From Phycisphaerae bacterium (GTDB lineage: Bacteria; Planctomycetota; Phycisphaerae; UBA1845): a stretch of DNA of 64,000 nucleotides. Position 1 is the first letter of the stretch. The number at the start of each line of letters is the position of its first letter. Positions 56,029 to 64,000 of this stretch are shown here, one piece after another. The stretch is from positions 1,088,001 to 1,152,000 of the forward strand of contig CAXXGO010000001.1 in NCBI GenBank assembly GCA_963666835.2, given 5' to 3'. The position numbers and the translations under genes were made by a program. The notes beneath the pieces were generated by a model. The model saw only the letters and a list, made by a program, of their open reading frames with translations. It was not told the origin of the DNA and made no database searches.

Positions 56029-59000
56029 TTACGGGCAGGCACTCGGGGCAACGAATGGATACGGATCCCCCTTGAATCCGCCCACGACTCGTTGCACGTC
56101 GGTCATGTTCACGATCGCGTTGGGGGTCTGGCCATCCACGTCAACCCAAACCAGCGGCGGAGCGCTTGGTGAGCCTGAGAACCGTTGGAGAGTCGCCTGG
56201 ACATCATTCATGTTCACGATGCCGTTCGGCGGCCCCCATGAGCCGACGAAGGAGCCGACGCAATCAGCCCAGAACTTGGGAGTCGGCTCCAGAACCGTGG
56301 GAACCGTCAGCCCGGCCGAGTAGTCCGCCTCGTTGCCCGGGTCTCCCGAGATGTCGAGGGCCTGGACGATATAGGTTTGATCCGGCGCGATTCCGCAGTC
56401 CCCGACGTGGATTACAGCGGGTTCGGTGCCCCAATCCGTGTAGTACGCGGTTGCCCCAAGCTGGAAGACGTCTGCCGGTTTCCCGGTTAAATGGGCCTGG
56501 ACCCACCATTGCGAGCCGCTGGACACGTGGATCACCCGCAGGGCTACTTGCGAGCCCGCATTGCCCGGCATGAACGAGATATAGCGGTTCTTTCCCGCAG
56601 CACTTGGTTCGGGCTCGGGTGGGTCGGGGATCTCGGTCAGCTCGGCGCTGGTGATCATGAAGGCCATGTCGCTGTATAGCGGTCCGGGCCACGTGGCCGA
56701 GCTCCACGTTCCCGGTGGGACAACCTGTTGGGCTGCCGGGCAGATAATCGGCGGACTCGTTCGGTGCATCTCCTGCCACTTCCACAGGACTGGGTTGTTC
56801 ACATCAACTGACCGGGCCATGATGTCCAGCCAGTAGGTCTCACCCTCGATCTGCTCGAACGGAACGTCTAGGAAGTACTCATACAGGTATATGGCTTCGC
56901 CCAGGTTGTTCACCAGTCCGGTCGGGTATTCGTTGTATTGTCCCGGGGTGAGATCTTCGCCCCATATCTCGACGTCTGGCAGGCACCAGGGCTCGCCGGG
57001 CAGATTCGGATGGATGCTCAGGTGGAAGCCGGCCAGCCCGGATCCCGGATCCTCGTACGCGCCCCACCAGTGGATGTCGGTGACCGCGCCACCCTCACAG
57101 ACCCACTGGTCGGCGGTGATGATCTGCCCCCCGGCGTAATCGTGGGCGTGCAGGCCGGACAGCTCCGTCGACAGCGGTTGGTCCCACTTGATGAACTCGC
57201 AAGCGTCATCGATCCCGTTGCCGTCGTGGTCGCCGTGACATTGCGACCCCGGGCCTCGGGAAGTGCCGCCCAAGCCGGCACAGTCCTCGGCAGGCGTGTC
57301 CACGCAACTACCGTCCGACAGGCAGCAGGCTTCATCGAGCGGAGGGGACACGCAGACGCAGCAGAAATCGATGGTGCCGTCGCCGGCAGGGGTCTGCACT
57401 TCTTCGCAGATCTCGTCCGCAGCGCAATCACCGACACAGGTCGGAGGCTCGGCGACCTCGGTTCTCATCTGGATTGTCGCAGTCGTGGTGCCCATGTAGT
57501 CCGCCAACTGGCTATCCGGGCAACCTTCGAACTCGATCTGATAGGTAATGTCAAAGAAGCTGTCGACGGCGAAGTCGCCGCTCGGCAGTTCCGTGAGGGT
57601 GGTCGTGCCCGCACCGGGCAGGCCGAAGTCCGAACCGCCGAGTACTCGGAAGGTGCAGAAGTCGGGATCGCCGAATAGCTCGCCCTGCAGCCGGTACATA
57701 TCGTTCGCGAAGGTCTGGACCGGATCACCCGGGGTCCTGGGTCCGGTGTGGACCTCGCAGGACACCGGCACGGCCAGGTGGCGGTTGAAGCCTGCCAAGT
57801 CGCCGGTGCCGGTAACGGTCAGATCGAGGGTGGACGCGAAGCAATCGCCGTGACCGCCGAGCGTACCGCCGGCCATCTCGCACTCCCCGGGCGACAGCGG
57901 CAGCGAACACAGCCCGGTGGACCCTTCGCAGATGAAATCCGTGTGAATCGGGTCCAGCTCAATTGTGGTTCCCGGCGGCAGACCTTCGATGATCATGTGG
58001 ACTTCGTCGGGGCTGAGGTAATCGCACCCGATCGGCGGGAGGGTCACCGTTCCGGTCCCGTTGTCTTCTACGACGCACGGATCGGACGGCGGGGTTGTCT
58101 GCAGGGCATGGCAATCCCCGGGTTCCTCGCATTCGCATACGATAACCGTAGAGTCGCCCGTCGCAGGGTCGTAGTTGAGGCACTGGGGTTGGCAGACGTC
58201 GCCCGTGTCCGGGCAGGCAACCGGCTTGCACGCGGATCCATCCGCCATCGGTTCGCACACGTCGGGGGCGCAGTCGCAGCAGATGTCGATTGTGCCGTCG
58301 GGGTTGACCCTCTGAGTTTCCTCGCAGACCTCTCCGGGAAGGCAATCACCGACGCAGGTCGGTGGCTGAGGCAGCTTGGTTCGCATCCGTAGTGTCGCGG
58401 TTGTCGTGCCCGAGTAGTCTGTCAGAACACTGCCCGGGCAACCCTCGAACTCTATCTGATAGGTGATGTCGAAGAAGCTGTCGACGGCAAAATCGCCGGT
58501 CGGCAGTTGCGTGAGCGTGGTCTCACCCGGCCCCGGCAGGCCGAAGTCCGTTCCGCCCAGGACCCGAAACGTACAGAAATCCGGATCGCCGAATAGCTCG
58601 CCCTGCAGGCGGTACATGTCGTTGGCGAAGGTCTGGACCGGATCGCCCGGAGTCCGAGGACCAGTGTGCACCTCGCAAGACACCGGCACGGCGATGTGCC
58701 GGTTGAAGCCCGTCAAATCGCCCGTGCCGGTAACGGTCAGATCCAGCGTCGATTCGAAGCAGTCTCCGTTGCCGCCCAGCGAGCCGCCGGCCGTCTCGCA
58801 TTCACCCGGCAGTAGCGGCATCGAGCACAAGGCAGACGGGGTACTGGGACAGAAGAAGTCCGTGTGAATCGGGTCCAGCTCAATCGTGGTTCCCGGAGGC
58901 AGGCCTTCGATGATCTCGTGGACCTCGTTCGGGCTGATGTAATCGCAGCCGATCGGCGGTAGCGTGATCGTCCCAGTTCCGTTGTCCTCCACGATGCACG

Positions 59001-59946
59001 GATCGGAATCGGCAGGGATGACGGCCCGGCACTCATCCGTCCCGCGGCAGTCACAGTCAATGACGGAAATCTGCCCGGAGTCCGGGTCGTAGTTCATGCA
59101 GACCGATTCGCATACCTCGGTTGCGTCAGGGCATAAGACATCGGCACAGGCGGAACCGTCGGCCAACGGCTCACAATCCTGGAATATCTCGGTTTCCATC
59201 CGGATCGTGGCGGTCGTGGTGCCCATGTAGCCATCCAGCATGCTGCCGGGACAGCCTTCGAACTCGATCTGATATGTGATGTCGAAGAAGCTGTCGACGG
59301 CGAAATCGCCACTGGGCAGCTCTGTCAAAGTGGTTGTGCCGGGACTCGGCAGGCCGAAATCCGTGCCGCCGAGGACTCGGAAGGTGCAGAAGTCCGGATC
59401 GCCGAACAGCTCACCCTGCAGGCGATACATGTCGGCGGCGAACGTCTGAACGGGATCTCCGGGGTTACGCGGGCCGGTGTGGACCTCGCAGCCGACTGGA
59501 ACGGCGAGGTGCCGGTTGAAGCCCGCTAAGTCGCCGGTTCCGGTTACGGTCAGGTCCAAGGTCGATTCGAAGCAATCGCCGTCACCACCGAGGGAACCGC
59601 CGGGCATCTCGCACTGGCCCGGCGGGATCGGCAACGAGCATATACCGCTGGACATCTCGCAGAAGAAGTCCATGTGGATCGGGTCCAACTCGATAGTGCT
59701 TCCTGCAGGCAGACCGTCGATGATAAGATGCACTTCGTCGGGGCTCAAGTACTCACACCCTATCGGCGGTAGAGTCACCGTTCCGGTTCCGTTGTCGGCC
59801 ACCACGCACGGGTCGGCCCCGGCCGGGGTCGCCGCGACCAGCATTGCGAGCAGCAACGTGCCTACTGTTGGCACTGCCCTTGACTTTATTTGAGGGTTGT
59901 CCCCTCCCCACGTTTCCCTGAGAGTAAACACAATTCGCACAGACAT
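56029..59946 (-). CDS. Large secreted protein: three ~215-aa repeats, Cys-rich linkers, C-terminal dockerin-like region
   Basis: AAGGAGG RBS; DPC..DNGTGT.TLPPIGC...FAVDSFFDITYQIEFEGCP three times; KWDQP...TDIHWWG; NGIVNMNDV / NAIVNMTDV. Confidence 0.85.
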   Translation of the reverse strand: MSVRIVFTLRETWGGDNPQIKSRAVPTVGTLLLAMLVAATPAGADPCVVADNGTGTVTLPPIGCEYLSPDEVHLIIDGLPAGSTIELDPIHMDFFCEMSSGICSLPIPPGQCEMPGGSLGGDGDCFESTLDLTVTGTGDLAGFNRHLAVPVGCEVHTGPRNPGDPVQTFAADMYRLQGELFGDPDFCTFRVLGGTDFGLPSPGTTTLTELPSGDFAVDSFFDITYQIEFEGCPGSMLDGYMGTTTATIRMETEIFQDCEPLADGSACADVLCPDATEVCESVCMNYDPDSGQISVIDCDCRGTDECRAVIPADSDPCIVEDNGTGTITLPPIGCDYISPNEVHEIIEGLPPGTTIELDPIHTDFFCPSTPSALCSMPLLPGECETAGGSLGGNGDCFESTLDLTVTGTGDLTGFNRHIAVPVSCEVHTGPRTPGDPVQTFANDMYRLQGELFGDPDFCTFRVLGGTDFGLPGPGETTLTQLPTGDFAVDSFFDITYQIEFEGCPGSVLTDYSGTTTATLRMRTKLPQPPTCVGDCLPGEVCEETQRVNPDGTIDICCDCAPDVCEPMADGSACKPVACPDTGDVCQPQCLNYDPATGDSTVIVCECEEPGDCHALQTTPPSDPCVVEDNGTGTVTLPPIGCDYLSPDEVHMIIEGLPPGTTIELDPIHTDFICEGSTGLCSLPLSPGECEMAGGTLGGHGDCFASTLDLTVTGTGDLAGFNRHLAVPVSCEVHTGPRTPGDPVQTFANDMYRLQGELFGDPDFCTFRVLGGSDFGLPGAGTTTLTELPSGDFAVDSFFDITYQIEFEGCPDSQLADYMGTTTATIQMRTEVAEPPTCVGDCAADEICEEVQTPAGDGTIDFCCVCVSPPLDEACCLSDGSCVDTPAEDCAGLGGTSRGPGSQCHGDHDGNGIDDACEFIKWDQPLSTELSGLHAHDYAGGQIITADQWVCEGGAVTDIHWWGAYEDPGSGLAGFHLSIHPNLPGEPWCLPDVEIWGEDLTPGQYNEYPTGLVNNLGEAIYLYEYFLDVPFEQIEGETYWLDIMARSVDVNNPVLWKWQEMHRTSPPIICPAAQQVVPPGTWSSATWPGPLYSDMAFMITSAELTEIPDPPEPEPSAAGKNRYISFMPGNAGSQVALRVIHVSSGSQWWVQAHLTGKPADVFQLGATAYYTDWGTEPAVIHVGDCGIAPDQTYIVQALDISGDPGNEADYSAGLTVPTVLEPTPKFWADCVGSFVGSWGPPNGIVNMNDVQATLQRFSGSPSAPPLVWVDVDGQTPNAIVNMTDVQRVVGGFKGDPYPFVAPSACP

Positions 59947-60401
59947 GACATCCTCCTTCGCACTTGCGAAATCACGCGCAATCCGGCCCAAACCATCCAT
60001 GTGTGGGACTTGTTTCGCAGCCCTAGCCCACCTGCGGCGCGCCCCACCCGGCGCACGCCACGCCTCTCACCTTGTGTTCTGCGGTAACTCCTCCGTACCG
60101 ACGATGCTCGACTACGTGATCTTTAACCCATCATGCTAACGCGCCGTACGCCATGACTCCAGAAGAAACGGCGAAGTCTCCGGAGATTCTCGGCCTTCCC
60201 GTCAACCGGGCCTGACGTCCGCGGCGCGCCGCACGAGGGTTTTCGAGCATGTTTGTGCCATCGGAGAGACAGTCGACTCCTTTGGGATCCGAGGGCGCCG
60301 CTGATTGTGTTGTGGTCGGGCGCCGGGGCGAGGATTCCAGGGTGCCATCGCACCGTCGCTGACCGCGCCCGTCTCCGACCGTTCCGACGTGGGGAGCTCT
60401 C

Positions 60402-60609: not shown

Positions 60610-60914
60610 ATCTACTGCAGGGGGATTTCATCGGTTCCCCAATGCTCAGGCGGCCGTACCCCGCACGGCCCTGCCGCAAGCTTGGCATACGCCGGATTCA
60701 ATAGAACACGCCCCCCGGCCATGCCGCTGGAAACATTCTGAAAGAGGCCGGGCGGCCGAAACAAGAGCGCGGCTCATCGATGTTGTCTCTTCCACCCCGT
60801 CAGGGTGGTTTGAGTTGTTGGCATCCCAGCCGGGGGCGGCGGCCGCTTCGCGACCTTGCCCCCGTCTGTCTAGCAGCCTTCCAGGCTGAACAGGGAGCCG
60901 CGCGTTGCGGCCTT

Positions 60915-61019
60915 TCAGGCTGTGGAGGGACCGCGACCGAGTCGGACGAGTGCGCTCGGTTTGTACCGCTGAAACGTGCAAAACAACGAGGGCGTCATTC
61001 TGAGGATCTTGCGAATCAT
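60915..61019 (-). pseudogene. Truncated array cassette (MIRKILR...)
   Basis: ATGA overlap with the upstream cassette and the family N-terminus; similarity is then lost and the ORF stops after 34 aa. Confidence 0.5.
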
Positions 61020-61462
61020 GGGGCGATCTCCGTCCCGCACTCCGAACACGTGCCCGACACGTTCCCGGTAAGATCGTAGCCGCACTCCGCACAGTGACCG
61101 GGGGGATACGGGCAATCGCGCCTCCACGCCAAGAACATTGGGACTCCGATTATCAGCAGGGGGATCCAGAGGGGAACACTGCACCTGTACAGGTTATGGC
61201 CGCTGTAGAGCCTCCTGGGCAACAAGAGGATCTTCGGCGAGGTGCACGCACCGAAGTGCCAGCCTATCGGGAGCACGCTGTCGAGTCCCCATGGACGGCC
61301 GTATTCGAACCCGACAGCTCCCAGGCCAACGACGGCATACCAACTGTGACTTCTGTAGCCGCAATACCACCACCGGCTTGCCACCATGGCCAGAAACAGA
61401 ACCACGCACGCCACCAGCCCCGCCCACCTCAGGAATTGCCGTTTCCGAGAGATCGTCCGCAT
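61016..61462 (-). CDS. Two-TM membrane protein with C-terminal Zn-ribbon (array member)
   Basis: MRTISRKRQF-TM-loop-PLW-TM-CAECGYDLTGNVSGTCSECG. Confidence 0.85.
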   Translation of the reverse strand: MRTISRKRQFLRWAGLVACVVLFLAMVASRWWYCGYRSHSWYAVVGLGAVGFEYGRPWGLDSVLPIGWHFGACTSPKILLLPRRLYSGHNLYRCSVPLWIPLLIIGVPMFLAWRRDCPYPPGHCAECGYDLTGNVSGTCSECGTEIAP

Positions 61463-61485
61463 GGTGGTCATCCGGCAGCCTCATC

Positions 61486-62073
61486 CTACTCGGGATCGAT
61501 AGCGACACCGCATTCGGAACAGACCCCCGTAACGTTGCCGGTCAGATCATAACCACATCGTCCACATTGGCCCTCGCCTCCTCGTCTACCGCGTCGCCGA
61601 ACAAGGCCGCGCACCAGAACGTACCCTGGGTAGGCGAGGAGCGCAACATCCACCAGCCACAGCGGCAATGAACACGCCCCAGCTACAAACGGTTTCACTC
61701 CAGAGCCAAACGGCGCTACGCCACGCCACGACATCACTCTGATCCCCAAAAACCTCGTATCCCTGTTGTCTGGCCGGATAAGCCGGCCGGGACTGCTCGT
61801 TTCCCTCGTCGCCCACCGAGTAGACAACGTTCCGCGATATACACTCAAGCAGAGATTGTGATTCGCCTCTTCTCCGAAGTCGAGCCAGTTGACATGCCAG
61901 CCTACTCCGCAGGAATGCGCATCGGGCACATCAGAGTACGACAACGGGCAACGGCCGAGTTCCAGGTAATCTGGCGGCCACCTGGTGAAGCTGGTTACAA
62001 GGAAGATCGAGACGACCAACGCACTGGCCATGCAGAGCAAAATGACAAGGGTTCGTGCTCTTCGTTGCCACAT
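61486..62073 (-). CDS. Two-TM membrane protein with C-terminal Zn-ribbon (array member)
   Basis: TM-loop-PLW..AYP-RRR-CGRCGYDLTGNVTGVCSECG; GGAG RBS. Confidence 0.85.
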   Translation of the reverse strand: MWQRRARTLVILLCMASALVVSIFLVTSFTRWPPDYLELGRCPLSYSDVPDAHSCGVGWHVNWLDFGEEANHNLCLSVYRGTLSTRWATRETSSPGRLIRPDNRDTRFLGIRVMSWRGVAPFGSGVKPFVAGACSLPLWLVDVALLAYPGYVLVRGLVRRRGRRGGEGQCGRCGYDLTGNVTGVCSECGVAIDPE

Positions 62074-62180
62074 GTCTCCATCTCCGAGCCGGGCTGCCCC
62101 GAGGACTTCGCCACGTCACCCACAAGCCATGTTCACACATCGTTTTGACGCAATCTGCAATCACCTCCCGCCGAGCAATC

Positions 62181-62246
62181 CTATCCGGGTTCGACAAGCT
62201 CCGCCGCCCACTTCAGGAACCGCCGTTTCCGAGAGATGGTCCGCAT
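62181..62246 (-). pseudogene. Truncated array cassette (MRTISRKRRFLKWA...)
   Basis: Near copy of the N-terminus of 61016-61462; ends after 21 aa. Confidence 0.6.
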
Positions 62247-62251
62247 GGTGG

Positions 62252-62803
62252 TTATCCGGTGGCCTCAGCCTTCTTGGGATCGATCGCGACGCCGCACTCG
62301 GAGCAGGCGCCCGAGACGTTGCCGGTCAGATTGTAGCCGCAGGCGAGGCAGAGGCCACGCTTCCGGCGACGGTGACGACGAAGGGGGCCGCGGATGAACG
62401 TGATGGTGGGGTAGAGGGAAAGGAGCAACGCTAGGCCATACAAAGAAATGCACTGCCTTGTGGATGAGGTCCGGGGGTCGCCGTTGCCGCCAGCGTCGTA
62501 CTTAAAAGGCTTGTTGTACCGTGGGCGCGAATATCCGCGCATCTCCCCGGGTTCCGAGAGGCCGGAGAAACCTCCATGCGCTCCGATCAACACAAGGTCG
62601 AGCGCATCGGACGATGTCCAAACTCCAATACACAGCCAACCACTGCATACTTCAAACTCAATTGAGACGTTCCTCGTTGGACATGTGATAAGGCGGGCGC
62701 CAACCCGATAGGAGACGACGGCAGCGGTGACGGAAGACACAACCCCCACCGTCAACCCGACGATGACGGTCACGCGGAACACCCTGAGGACCTTGCGTAT
62801 CAC
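62252..62803 (-). CDS. Two-TM membrane protein with C-terminal Zn-ribbon (array member)
   Basis: GTGA overlap start; MIRKVLR-TM-loop-TM-YP..FIRGP.RR.RRRKRGLCLACGYNLTGNVSGACSECG. Confidence 0.85.
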   Translation of the reverse strand: MIRKVLRVFRVTVIVGLTVGVVSSVTAAVVSYRVGARLITCPTRNVSIEFEVCSGWLCIGVWTSSDALDLVLIGAHGGFSGLSEPGEMRGYSRPRYNKPFKYDAGGNGDPRTSSTRQCISLYGLALLLSLYPTITFIRGPLRRHRRRKRGLCLACGYNLTGNVSGACSECGVAIDPKKAEATG

Positions 62804-63177
62804 GGCGCGATCTCCGACCCGCATTCCGGGCAGATTCCGGATACGTTGCCGGTGAGGTTGTACCCGCACGTCAAGCAGTGAGTACTGTCGTCATCGATGG
62901 CAGCTTGTCGTAACCCGAAGTAGATTAGTTCGGCGGAAGCCAGCAGAACGACAATCGCGCATGCTGCCCCCAGCGCAAGGCTCAACAGCATCGGCAGCAG
63001 ACCTGACTCGACCAGCGTAAACGTGGCAAAGATAACCATGCCTTCAAGGAAAAGAACCACGGGGCAAAGGGAGATGAATATGGCGAAGCACACCCACAGC
63101 GGAAACCGCCAGCGCCCGCGCTTCTTGGCTCGAGCCAACTCCAGGTACCGTTGATAGAAAGACCGTTCCCGGCTCAT
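62800..63177 (-). CDS. Membrane protein with C-terminal Zn-ribbon (array member, short-loop type)
   Basis: ATGA overlap start; 2-3 hydrophobic segments; CLTCGYNLTGNVSGICPECG. Confidence 0.85.
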   Translation of the reverse strand: MSRERSFYQRYLELARAKKRGRWRFPLWVCFAIFISLCPVVLFLEGMVIFATFTLVESGLLPMLLSLALGAACAIVVLLASAELIYFGLRQAAIDDDSTHCLTCGYNLTGNVSGICPECGSEIAP

Positions 63178-63731
63178 ACGGCGTCCCCACACTCCGGACA
63201 CACTCCCGATACGTTCCCTTCCAGGTTATACCCGCACGTCAGGCACAAGCCGCGCTTTCTACGACGCCACCTGCGAACCGGACCACGCACGAAGGCAAAC
63301 CCCGGATACGCCGCCAGGACAACAGGAACGAACCAATTTGGCACGTCAATCTCCCAGAACACGCATCGTGGCAAACCACGTCCACCAGAGTTACCACTCG
63401 TCCATCCGTAGTCTCCGAGGCCGATCCTCCTGCGTTTCACACGTCTCTGACCCTCTGCCAGGCTTACGAAAGACACAGCACTCCGATCCGGATTCACGTC
63501 AAGAACCAGCCTGTATTCCCACGACACATACTCTTCATCGCGGAACCGCCGCTCAGCGCCAAAACCCAGCGAGATCATGCTACCCCAGCCCGGCGCCCGG
63601 GCGACATCAAGCCTCTGATTCTCAGAACGCCAGATAGACGCCGGTTCCCCCGGGTAGGCCAGAAGCACCCACGCAACGACAGACCCAACGGCCCCGAACG
63701 CACAGCCGTAGAGCAGGATCTTGCGAATCAC
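63174..63731 (-). CDS. Two-TM membrane protein with C-terminal Zn-ribbon (array member)
   Basis: GTGA overlap start; MIRKILL-TM-loop-TM-AYP..FVRGP.RRWRRRKRGLCLTCGYNLEGNVSGVCPECG. Confidence 0.85.
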   Translation of the reverse strand: MIRKILLYGCAFGAVGSVVAWVLLAYPGEPASIWRSENQRLDVARAPGWGSMISLGFGAERRFRDEEYVSWEYRLVLDVNPDRSAVSFVSLAEGQRRVKRRRIGLGDYGWTSGNSGGRGLPRCVFWEIDVPNWFVPVVLAAYPGFAFVRGPVRRWRRRKRGLCLTCGYNLEGNVSGVCPECGDAV

Positions 63732-64000
63732 GGTGGCGCCGCCTCCATCCCGCATTCCGAACATCGTCCGCCTACGTTGCCAGTCAAGTCGTAACCGCAG
63801 GCGAGGCATAGCCCACGGTGAGAGCGGCGCCACCGCCGATACCATCCGCGGATGAAGGCGAGCGTTCGGCGCAACGCCGATACGCGGAACAGAAAGCAGC
63901 TTGGGACGCAGATGCTCGGGGTCGCACGCGCCACGCGTTGCCCCGAAGAGAAAACGATCCTGAGAATCAGAATCCTGCCTGTCCTCACCGAGCGATTGGC
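63728..64000 (-). CDS. Array member, partial (5' end probably outside the window)
   Basis: FIRGWYRRWRRSHRGLCLACGYDLTGNVGGRCSECG; the frame is open to the window edge. Confidence 0.75.
   Translation of the reverse strand, partial: ANRSVRTGRILILRIVFSSGQRVARATPSICVPSCFLFRVSALRRTLAFIRGWYRRWRRSHRGLCLACGYDLTGNVGGRCSECGMEAAPP

Follow-up and report, generated by a model that had tools for sequence, protein, structure and literature searches.

What is the use of a tandem array of short membrane-protein genes in which every product ends in the same zinc (Zn) ribbon while the rest of the protein varies? The question is raised by one end of a 64,000-nucleotide (nt) stretch of DNA from a Phycisphaerae bacterium, called the window here, which is G000:C1:1088001-1152000; G000 is the genome analysed (6.0 Mb, 92% complete), C-prefixed coordinates are its contigs and labels such as L069 are individual loci. 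The six array genes are named g1 to g6, and A1, A2, A4 and A5 are sister arrays in G000. The original prediction offered three options for the array, namely a sensor repertoire, a toxin-immunity array and a phage-exclusion array, and it is the second that receives direct support, from the position of ribbon genes behind the toxin tips of Rhs proteins. With a probability of roughly 60%, g1-g6 form an orphan set of immunity genes directed at the envelope-acting Rhs tips of rivals, the protection itself being predicted.

As an immunity array, each intact gene would encode an inner-membrane protein whose variable outer part binds one kind of envelope-acting Rhs tip. The tips are presumed to act in the periplasm or in the membrane, the outer domain would neutralise the tip, and the ribbon would hand the complex to a shared cytoplasmic partner, which would most likely either anchor it or lead to its removal by a membrane protease. 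Cassettes are added, removed and re-headed by homologous recombination in a block made of tail, stop/start overlap and next head, and the 4-nt overlaps couple the translation of the genes. A very large family that has gone unannotated thereby receives a role open to testing, and it becomes connected with the uncharacterised Cys-rich Rhs tips of a planctomycete order that is widespread and for the most part uncultured. Known immunity proteins are structurally unrelated to one another. If the reading is true, a single cytoplasmic module kept constant across membrane immunity modules of unrelated kinds would represent a new design and would imply a further partner.

Ribbon genes behind Rhs tips

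Tips were found by profile search in 30 loci taken by best Rhs score, in 18 further Rhs-rich regions (other genomes) and in all of G000; the presence of an Rhs core decided which loci were taken, and the ribbon played no part in it. Among the 99 tips obtained, the 92 with at least 700 nt downstream were counted. A gene with a transmembrane (TM) segment and the ribbon stands directly after 16 of them, in 9 of 29 genomes (13/69 outside G000), whereas such a gene follows only 12 of 2351 long G000 genes (0.5%), an enrichment of about 30-fold behind tips. The counting rule missed one tip/ribbon pair in G000 (C6:1070764), and the tip of L183, which is among the 16, is so short that it could be a misreading.

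The tip-adjacent genes of L180, L183 and L195 score 78.9, 59.5 and 52.4 bits, respectively, over nearly the whole of a profile led by g6, and in L069 an HExxH-type tip is followed, after 143 nt, by a gene matching g2 over residues 1-185. All four partners have the full TM/beta-loop/TM/ribbon architecture. In addition, G000 has an Rhs locus at C6:1059173-1079374 (L157, L210) in which seven cores alternate with partner genes; the tips of four of the seven are directly followed by TM and ribbon genes, and one more ribbon gene comes after the end of the locus. Two of its tips, at C6:1064510 and C6:1077551, are Gly/Ala-rich paralogs, and each is followed by a paralogous ribbon gene, and a homolog of the C6 partner (45% over 119 residues) is an orphan in a ribbon-gene cluster at C1:1493700. 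Such pairing of tip and partner families was seen for one sibling family in G000. The pairs of L069, L180, L213 and G000:C6:1062-1078 kb make both toxins and protection testable in laboratory hosts.

Six or more cysteines are found in 11 of the 16 ribbon-adjacent tips, 5 of these 11 having an HExxH-like motif, and two of the 16 are Gly/Ala-rich and helical. One ribbon-adjacent tip (L213:6899-7315, minus strand) matches PLA2G12 above the cut-off, and the gene after it encodes a multi-TM protein with an N-terminal ribbon; one tip matches Peptidase_M76 just below the cut-off. Cys-rich HExxH-like tips occur in L069, L179, L195, L196 and L198, mostly with no Pfam match, and are likely to be an undescribed group of periplasmic metallopeptidase toxins. 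Of 121 genomes of the order, 114 contain Rhs cores; a type VI secretion system sheath gene is present in G000.

Several points weigh against immunity as the function of g1-g6. No cognate tip was found for the g1-g6 loops, and 320 kb separate the array from the closest Rhs core. When loci were selected by ribbon, an Rhs core was present in just 2 of 118, with a ribbon gene next to it in 1, and in the count above other neighbours stand behind 76 of the 92 tips. The background rate in the 30-fold figure is that of a single genome, and the loci cannot count as independent. Because 14 of the 16 scanned tips have no clear Pfam identity, their toxicity is assumed. Furthermore, the ribbon is also carried by MFS, APC, CstA and Yip1-/PrsW-like proteins, which are no immunity proteins, and non-synonymous change is not in excess in the loops. 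No relative turned up when metagenomes were scanned with the N-terminal part of g5. Immediately beside ribbon genes, most genes are unrelated ones with housekeeping roles.

The array and the layout of its proteins

The gene order on the minus strand is tRNA-Pro(TGG), nitroreductase and then g1 to g6. The features, in window coordinates, are as follows.

63728 to 64000 (frame from 64018), minus strand: g1, a tail-only fragment with a degenerate end of the second TM segment (TM2), Arg linker and Zn ribbon
63174 to 63731, minus strand: g2, 185 residues, with an IRKxILxG-type head and first TM segment (TM1), beta-rich loop, TM2, Arg linker and Zn ribbon
62800 to 63177, minus strand: g3, 125 residues, with a basic N-terminus, helical hairpin and Zn ribbon, lacking a large loop
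62252 to 62803, minus strand: g4, 183 residues, with an IRKxLRxFRV-type head, TM1, loop, TM2 and Zn ribbon
62181 to 62246, minus strand: head-only stub of the MRTISRKRRFLKW type, part of the junction repeat
61486 to 62073, minus strand: g5, 195 residues, with the full TM/loop/TM/ribbon layout
61016 to 61471, minus strand: g6, 151 residues, of the MRTISRK/KW-G class
60915 to 61019, minus strand: head-only stub beginning MIRKILRM, cut after about 27 nt by the dispersed repeat element
60734 to 60991, no strand assigned: dispersed repeat element, with 59 blastn rows in the genome
60586 to 60612, no strand assigned: hairpin like a repetitive extragenic palindrome (REP), whose 20-nt core has 846 genome matches

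As first described, there are six co-oriented minus-strand open reading frames with the C-terminal motif CxxCGY[DN]L[TE]GNV[ST]GxC[PS]ECG, and 4-nt overlaps lie at 63728-63731 (GTGA), 63174-63177 (ATGA), 62800-62803 (GTGA) and 61016-61019 (ATGA). The last of these, taken for a gene-to-gene junction, leads into a 34-residue head-only stub and no gene. A fifth overlap junction exists at the other end, where the ATG of g1 overlaps the stop of the nitroreductase gene (64015-64713, window-extended). The array was expected to run on past the window, but it does so by only 18 nt, g1 starting at window-extended 64018. Nor is there a toxin or regulator at the array head, which had been proposed as the place to look for one; nitroreductase and tRNA-Pro lie upstream instead. 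The array is therefore an orphan, a set of tandem paralogs with no adjacent toxin.

The arrangement TM/loop/TM/Arg linker/Zn ribbon, originally assigned to most of the copies, holds for g2, g4, g5 and g6 but not for g1, which is tail-only and has no predicted TM segment, or for the helical hairpin g3. The AlphaFold model of g6 (mean predicted local distance difference test score, pLDDT, 85.6) has a helix at 9-31, five strands at 35-100 forming a beta-meander, a helix at 102-119 and the Zn ribbon. That of g2 (pLDDT 69.9) is likewise helix, beta-meander, helix and ribbon, with a low-confidence loop. The loops, said to be unlike each other, have no pairwise similarity within the array, but members of the family share a beta-meander scaffold, a conserved turn with Gly and, ahead of TM2, a PxW motif. 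Foldseek searches with the g2 and g6 models gave no match at E<=0.001, and the best VIA-align Z for the g2 model was 5.7. Claudins, the top rows for g6, were rejected as fold relatives, their E of 0.24 being no evidence.

The charge argument for the topology is supported: lysine plus arginine come to 9.8 inside and 2.4 outside, and the basic residues are on the side of the N-terminus and ribbon in 156/156 homologs. The central loop and C-termini of MFS transporters are cytoplasmic. Since the same ribbon occurs at these places in MFS transporters, it and the charge bias together support a periplasmic loop, so that the variable part would be outside and the Zn ribbon inside.

Small two-TM proteins with periplasmic loops resemble known phage-exclusion proteins in layout, and phage exclusion was one of the options offered. 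Such exclusion, or a role as receptor decoys, at the inner membrane is very improbable, as PADLOC matched 0/74 members and PHROGs 0/5, and the 1 match in IMG/VR lies at a contig edge.

The family is large. The strict motif has 31 copies in G000 (the reversed pattern has 0), well beyond chance expectation, and in this genome six arrays are of the g1-g6 subtype. A count with a profile built from 74 rows gave 47,453 representatives (50% identity) at E<=0.001, 8,796 at 1e-10 and 886 at 1e-30; in the weaker matches it is probably just the tail that aligns. Of 41 genomes belonging to the family and order, 38 had a match to g2 as query, and in those other than G000 the match lay almost exclusively in the last ~55 residues. 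The 74-row profile matched 7/13 same-class genomes and 0/187 other planctomycete genomes (at most 18 candidates scored per genome), and the strict motif is in 19/22 same-order and 9/128 other same-class genomes. By these sequence searches the family is confined to Phycisphaerae among the genomes sampled. By rule, a ribbon gene is present in 73 of 77 loci, 39 of the 73 having runs of two to nine, and 156 homologs fall into 127 loop families.

Homologs carry only the name "hypothetical protein" (Planctomycetes or Phycisphaerae), and the family has no Pfam model. Sequence searches of Pfam, NCBIfam, PADLOC, PHROGs and the PDB gave nothing or generic ribbon models below the cut-off. Pfam Imm models did not match g1-g6 at E<=1, nor did those of NCBIfam match g2-g6. 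A description of the family was not found in the literature, though supplementary tables could still list it.

Exchange at the gene junctions

The DNA repeat unit of the arrays spans the gene junction, consisting of tail, stop/start overlap and next head. Around g5 it is visible as a 138-nt junction repeat on both sides (62204-62341 and 61420-61557, 84% identical), and short tails overlap a start codon in 17/19 cases in G000 and 19/24 elsewhere. The head of g4 has 79-87% DNA identity with heads of four paralogs whose loops are unrelated. Loops of the g2 family stand under two different heads and are found again in sister arrays A1, A2 and A4. Moreover, in one paralog pair the heads are 100% identical and the loops have a synonymous divergence of 0.36. 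Read from these sequences, heads and loops are reshuffled among paralogs.

Array content was compared with a second sample. The window's own locus has the same content: one contig shows 0 differences over 2581 nt, from g4 through the tRNA, and the next shows 24, of which 21 are within g5 codons 7-119. The g5 differences are 14 synonymous and 7 non-synonymous (pN/pS about 0.16), and the diverged g5 allele is, on this pattern, one imported by recombination and under purifying selection. A target of a diversity-generating retroelement was rejected, because the 21 differences are of mixed kinds, mostly synonymous and not adenine-specific. A comparison of loop and tail had been suggested; the ratios of non-synonymous to synonymous change are 0.1-0.4 in tails and 0.4-1.2 in loops, higher in loops but with no non-synonymous excess.

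Content does differ in sister array A2, which lacks its A2b cassette in the second population: a gap-free contig of the second sample joins A2a to the A2c head, and the whole of A2b is missing. The A2a part matches A2a at 25/29 listed differences, and a hybrid with its crossover between A2a and A2c inside the ribbon codons predicts 52-56 differences, with 54 seen. The longest exact match between the two A2 junctions is 10 nt, which is too short for an assembly jump. Run X1 has a contig whose junction, before an A2c-like gene, agrees with none of those in G000 (10 differences, against a best of 15); it may be a third arrangement and was not counted. Array A4 is largely without coverage in 4/4 runs, one of which is probably from the study that yielded the genome, so no A4 loss is claimed for the second population. 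Arrays A4 and A5 (G000:C3:428-441 kb and C5:30-41 kb; L057, L058) share an upstream block, with the head cut by an insertion in both, and one gene of the block is presumably ArdC-like.

Such exchange could be the work of a dedicated site-specific system, integron- or rAID-like, that assembles the arrays. Array A1 follows a gene judged from its sequence to be XerD-like, and REP-like hairpins are near 9/17 loci. However, the codon use of the tails follows the genome, which indicates a constraint on the protein and rules out a fixed DNA recombination site, and no recombinase lies beside the g1-g6 array. Hairpins also lie near 17/45 other ribbon genes, which excludes a REP association specific to arrays. 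A system of this kind is extremely improbable. The array itself is real, under selection and recombining.

A portable ribbon, comparable systems and the surroundings

The same ribbon is carried by CstA, APC and several MFS transporter families, and ribbon-bearing MFS and CstA proteins have it as cytoplasmic insertions (P0281, P0285, P0288, P0292, P0295, P0296, P0303 and P0312). In one MFS family it is present in 13 of 120 homologs, in the central loop of 12 and N-terminal in one. On a quickly built tree of 71 of these rows, namely the 70 best-scoring ones shorter than 600 residues plus the one carrier left over, at least 4 of the 8 gains or losses required are forced. G000 also has the ribbon together with Yip1-like and PrsW-like proteins (below the cut-off), and ZnR/GYF proteins with RDD, Yip1 or PrsW modules are described (PMC11135422, in part). 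Being portable across membrane proteins, the ribbon is most simply a docking site, probably for a single cytoplasmic partner that the proteins have in common.

The ribbon might instead be a general tag of membrane proteins, for localisation, insertion or turnover, with arrays that expanded by recombination and have mixed or weak functions, only some of them immunity. Such a tag fits the repeated gains and losses among MFS transporters, the hydrophobic segment in 82 of the 86 G000 proteins with a loose-pattern ribbon, and the many fragments, frameshifts and insertions in the arrays. It would nevertheless leave unexplained the enrichment behind Rhs tips and the paired tip/partner paralogs, and it sits poorly with purifying selection on g5; we consider it quite unlikely.

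A sensor repertoire, the remaining option of the original prediction, would take Rhs tips as identity or danger signals no less than poisons, with the ribbon reporting binding to a common signalling partner in kin recognition or attack sensing. An invariant domain in the cytoplasm is not something that plain neutralisation requires, but column conservation over the 156 homologs is 0.87 in the ribbon versus 0.16 in the loop, and the ribbon is kept across unrelated membrane modules. Furthermore, membrane-tethered ribbons bind partners in GltJ of Myxococcus (MglB) and ZitP of Caulobacter (PopZ), according to PMC11135422. On the other hand, the gene order is that of toxin-immunity pairs, no MglB/roadblock gene (PF03259) was found in the 92% complete G000, and a Pfam scan of 112 flanking genes (E<=1e-8) showed no recurring partner, whether regulator, kinase or sigma factor, although the same scan missed the L069 Rhs gene. 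We therefore regard a sensor repertoire as unlikely, though more probable than the other alternatives to immunity.

A wider proposal, which is tentative, combines both ideas. Phycisphaerae might possess a combinatorial receptor system against contact-dependent attack, in which tens of thousands of junction-shuffled outer domains are paired with Rhs tips and all plug via the invariant ribbon into one cytoplasmic pathway; immunity would thereby be coupled to a common signal or disposal route, which transporters would join by repeatedly capturing the ribbon.

As an orphan immunity array, g1-g6 can be set beside several known systems. Polyimmunity or orphan immunity loci, as described in part of PMC3482391, also consist of tandem non-identical paralogs away from a toxin, with homologs in the slot behind toxin tips. 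The tandem esaG and tipC paralogs are likewise gained and lost by recombination between conserved blocks, which lie at both ends in tipC (PMC9484751, abstract). Unlike these, g1-g6 have no Pfam Imm match, unrelated outer modules share one constant cytoplasmic Zn ribbon, and the recombining block spans the stop/start junction, with heads and loops exchanged independently. GltJ and ZitP are membrane proteins whose Cys4 ribbon faces the cytoplasm and serves for protein docking; theirs is N-terminal, followed in GltJ by a GYF domain, whereas the present one is C-terminal, shorter, with no GYF domain, and belongs to polymorphic arrays in a genome where no MglB gene was found (PMC11135422, in part). 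The p44/msp2 cassettes of Anaplasma share a central hypervariable region, conserved flanks, exchange by recombination and many fragments, but they encode antigens of the outer membrane, the donors being silent and expression confined to a single site, in contrast to the serially coupled inner-membrane protein genes here (PMC1366493, excerpts). Integron or recombinase cassette arrays differ in that the present array has no adjacent recombinase or conserved DNA site. Ribbons on envelope-stress proteins are mentioned in PMC11237479, and the g1-g6 family is not among them in the accessible portion of that paper.

By analogy, the array would work like a polyimmunity locus and evolve like esaG/tipC arrays and p44 cassettes, the protection being predicted.

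As for the surroundings, a promoter/terminator scan was at chance level. The link to nitroreductase is local, a ribbon gene being next in 1 of 4 close orthologs; in another genus a single g6-class gene (L024:1037-1501, minus strand) stands directly after a nitroreductase ortholog. A g3 relative (38% identical) is in a two-gene array of another genus (L215). The stub that ends the array occurs with the same dispersed element at G000:C6:1932819, far from any array, and G000 has 9 Y1 transposase matches. Just upstream of tRNA-Pro, on the opposite strand, a 2906-residue Cys-rich protein with long tandem repeats is encoded (L001:6240-14960, plus strand), and positions 56029-60000 of the window (minus strand) encode a 1323-residue secreted-type protein with three internal repeats, DUF7901 above the cut-off and, by eye, a dockerin-like end.

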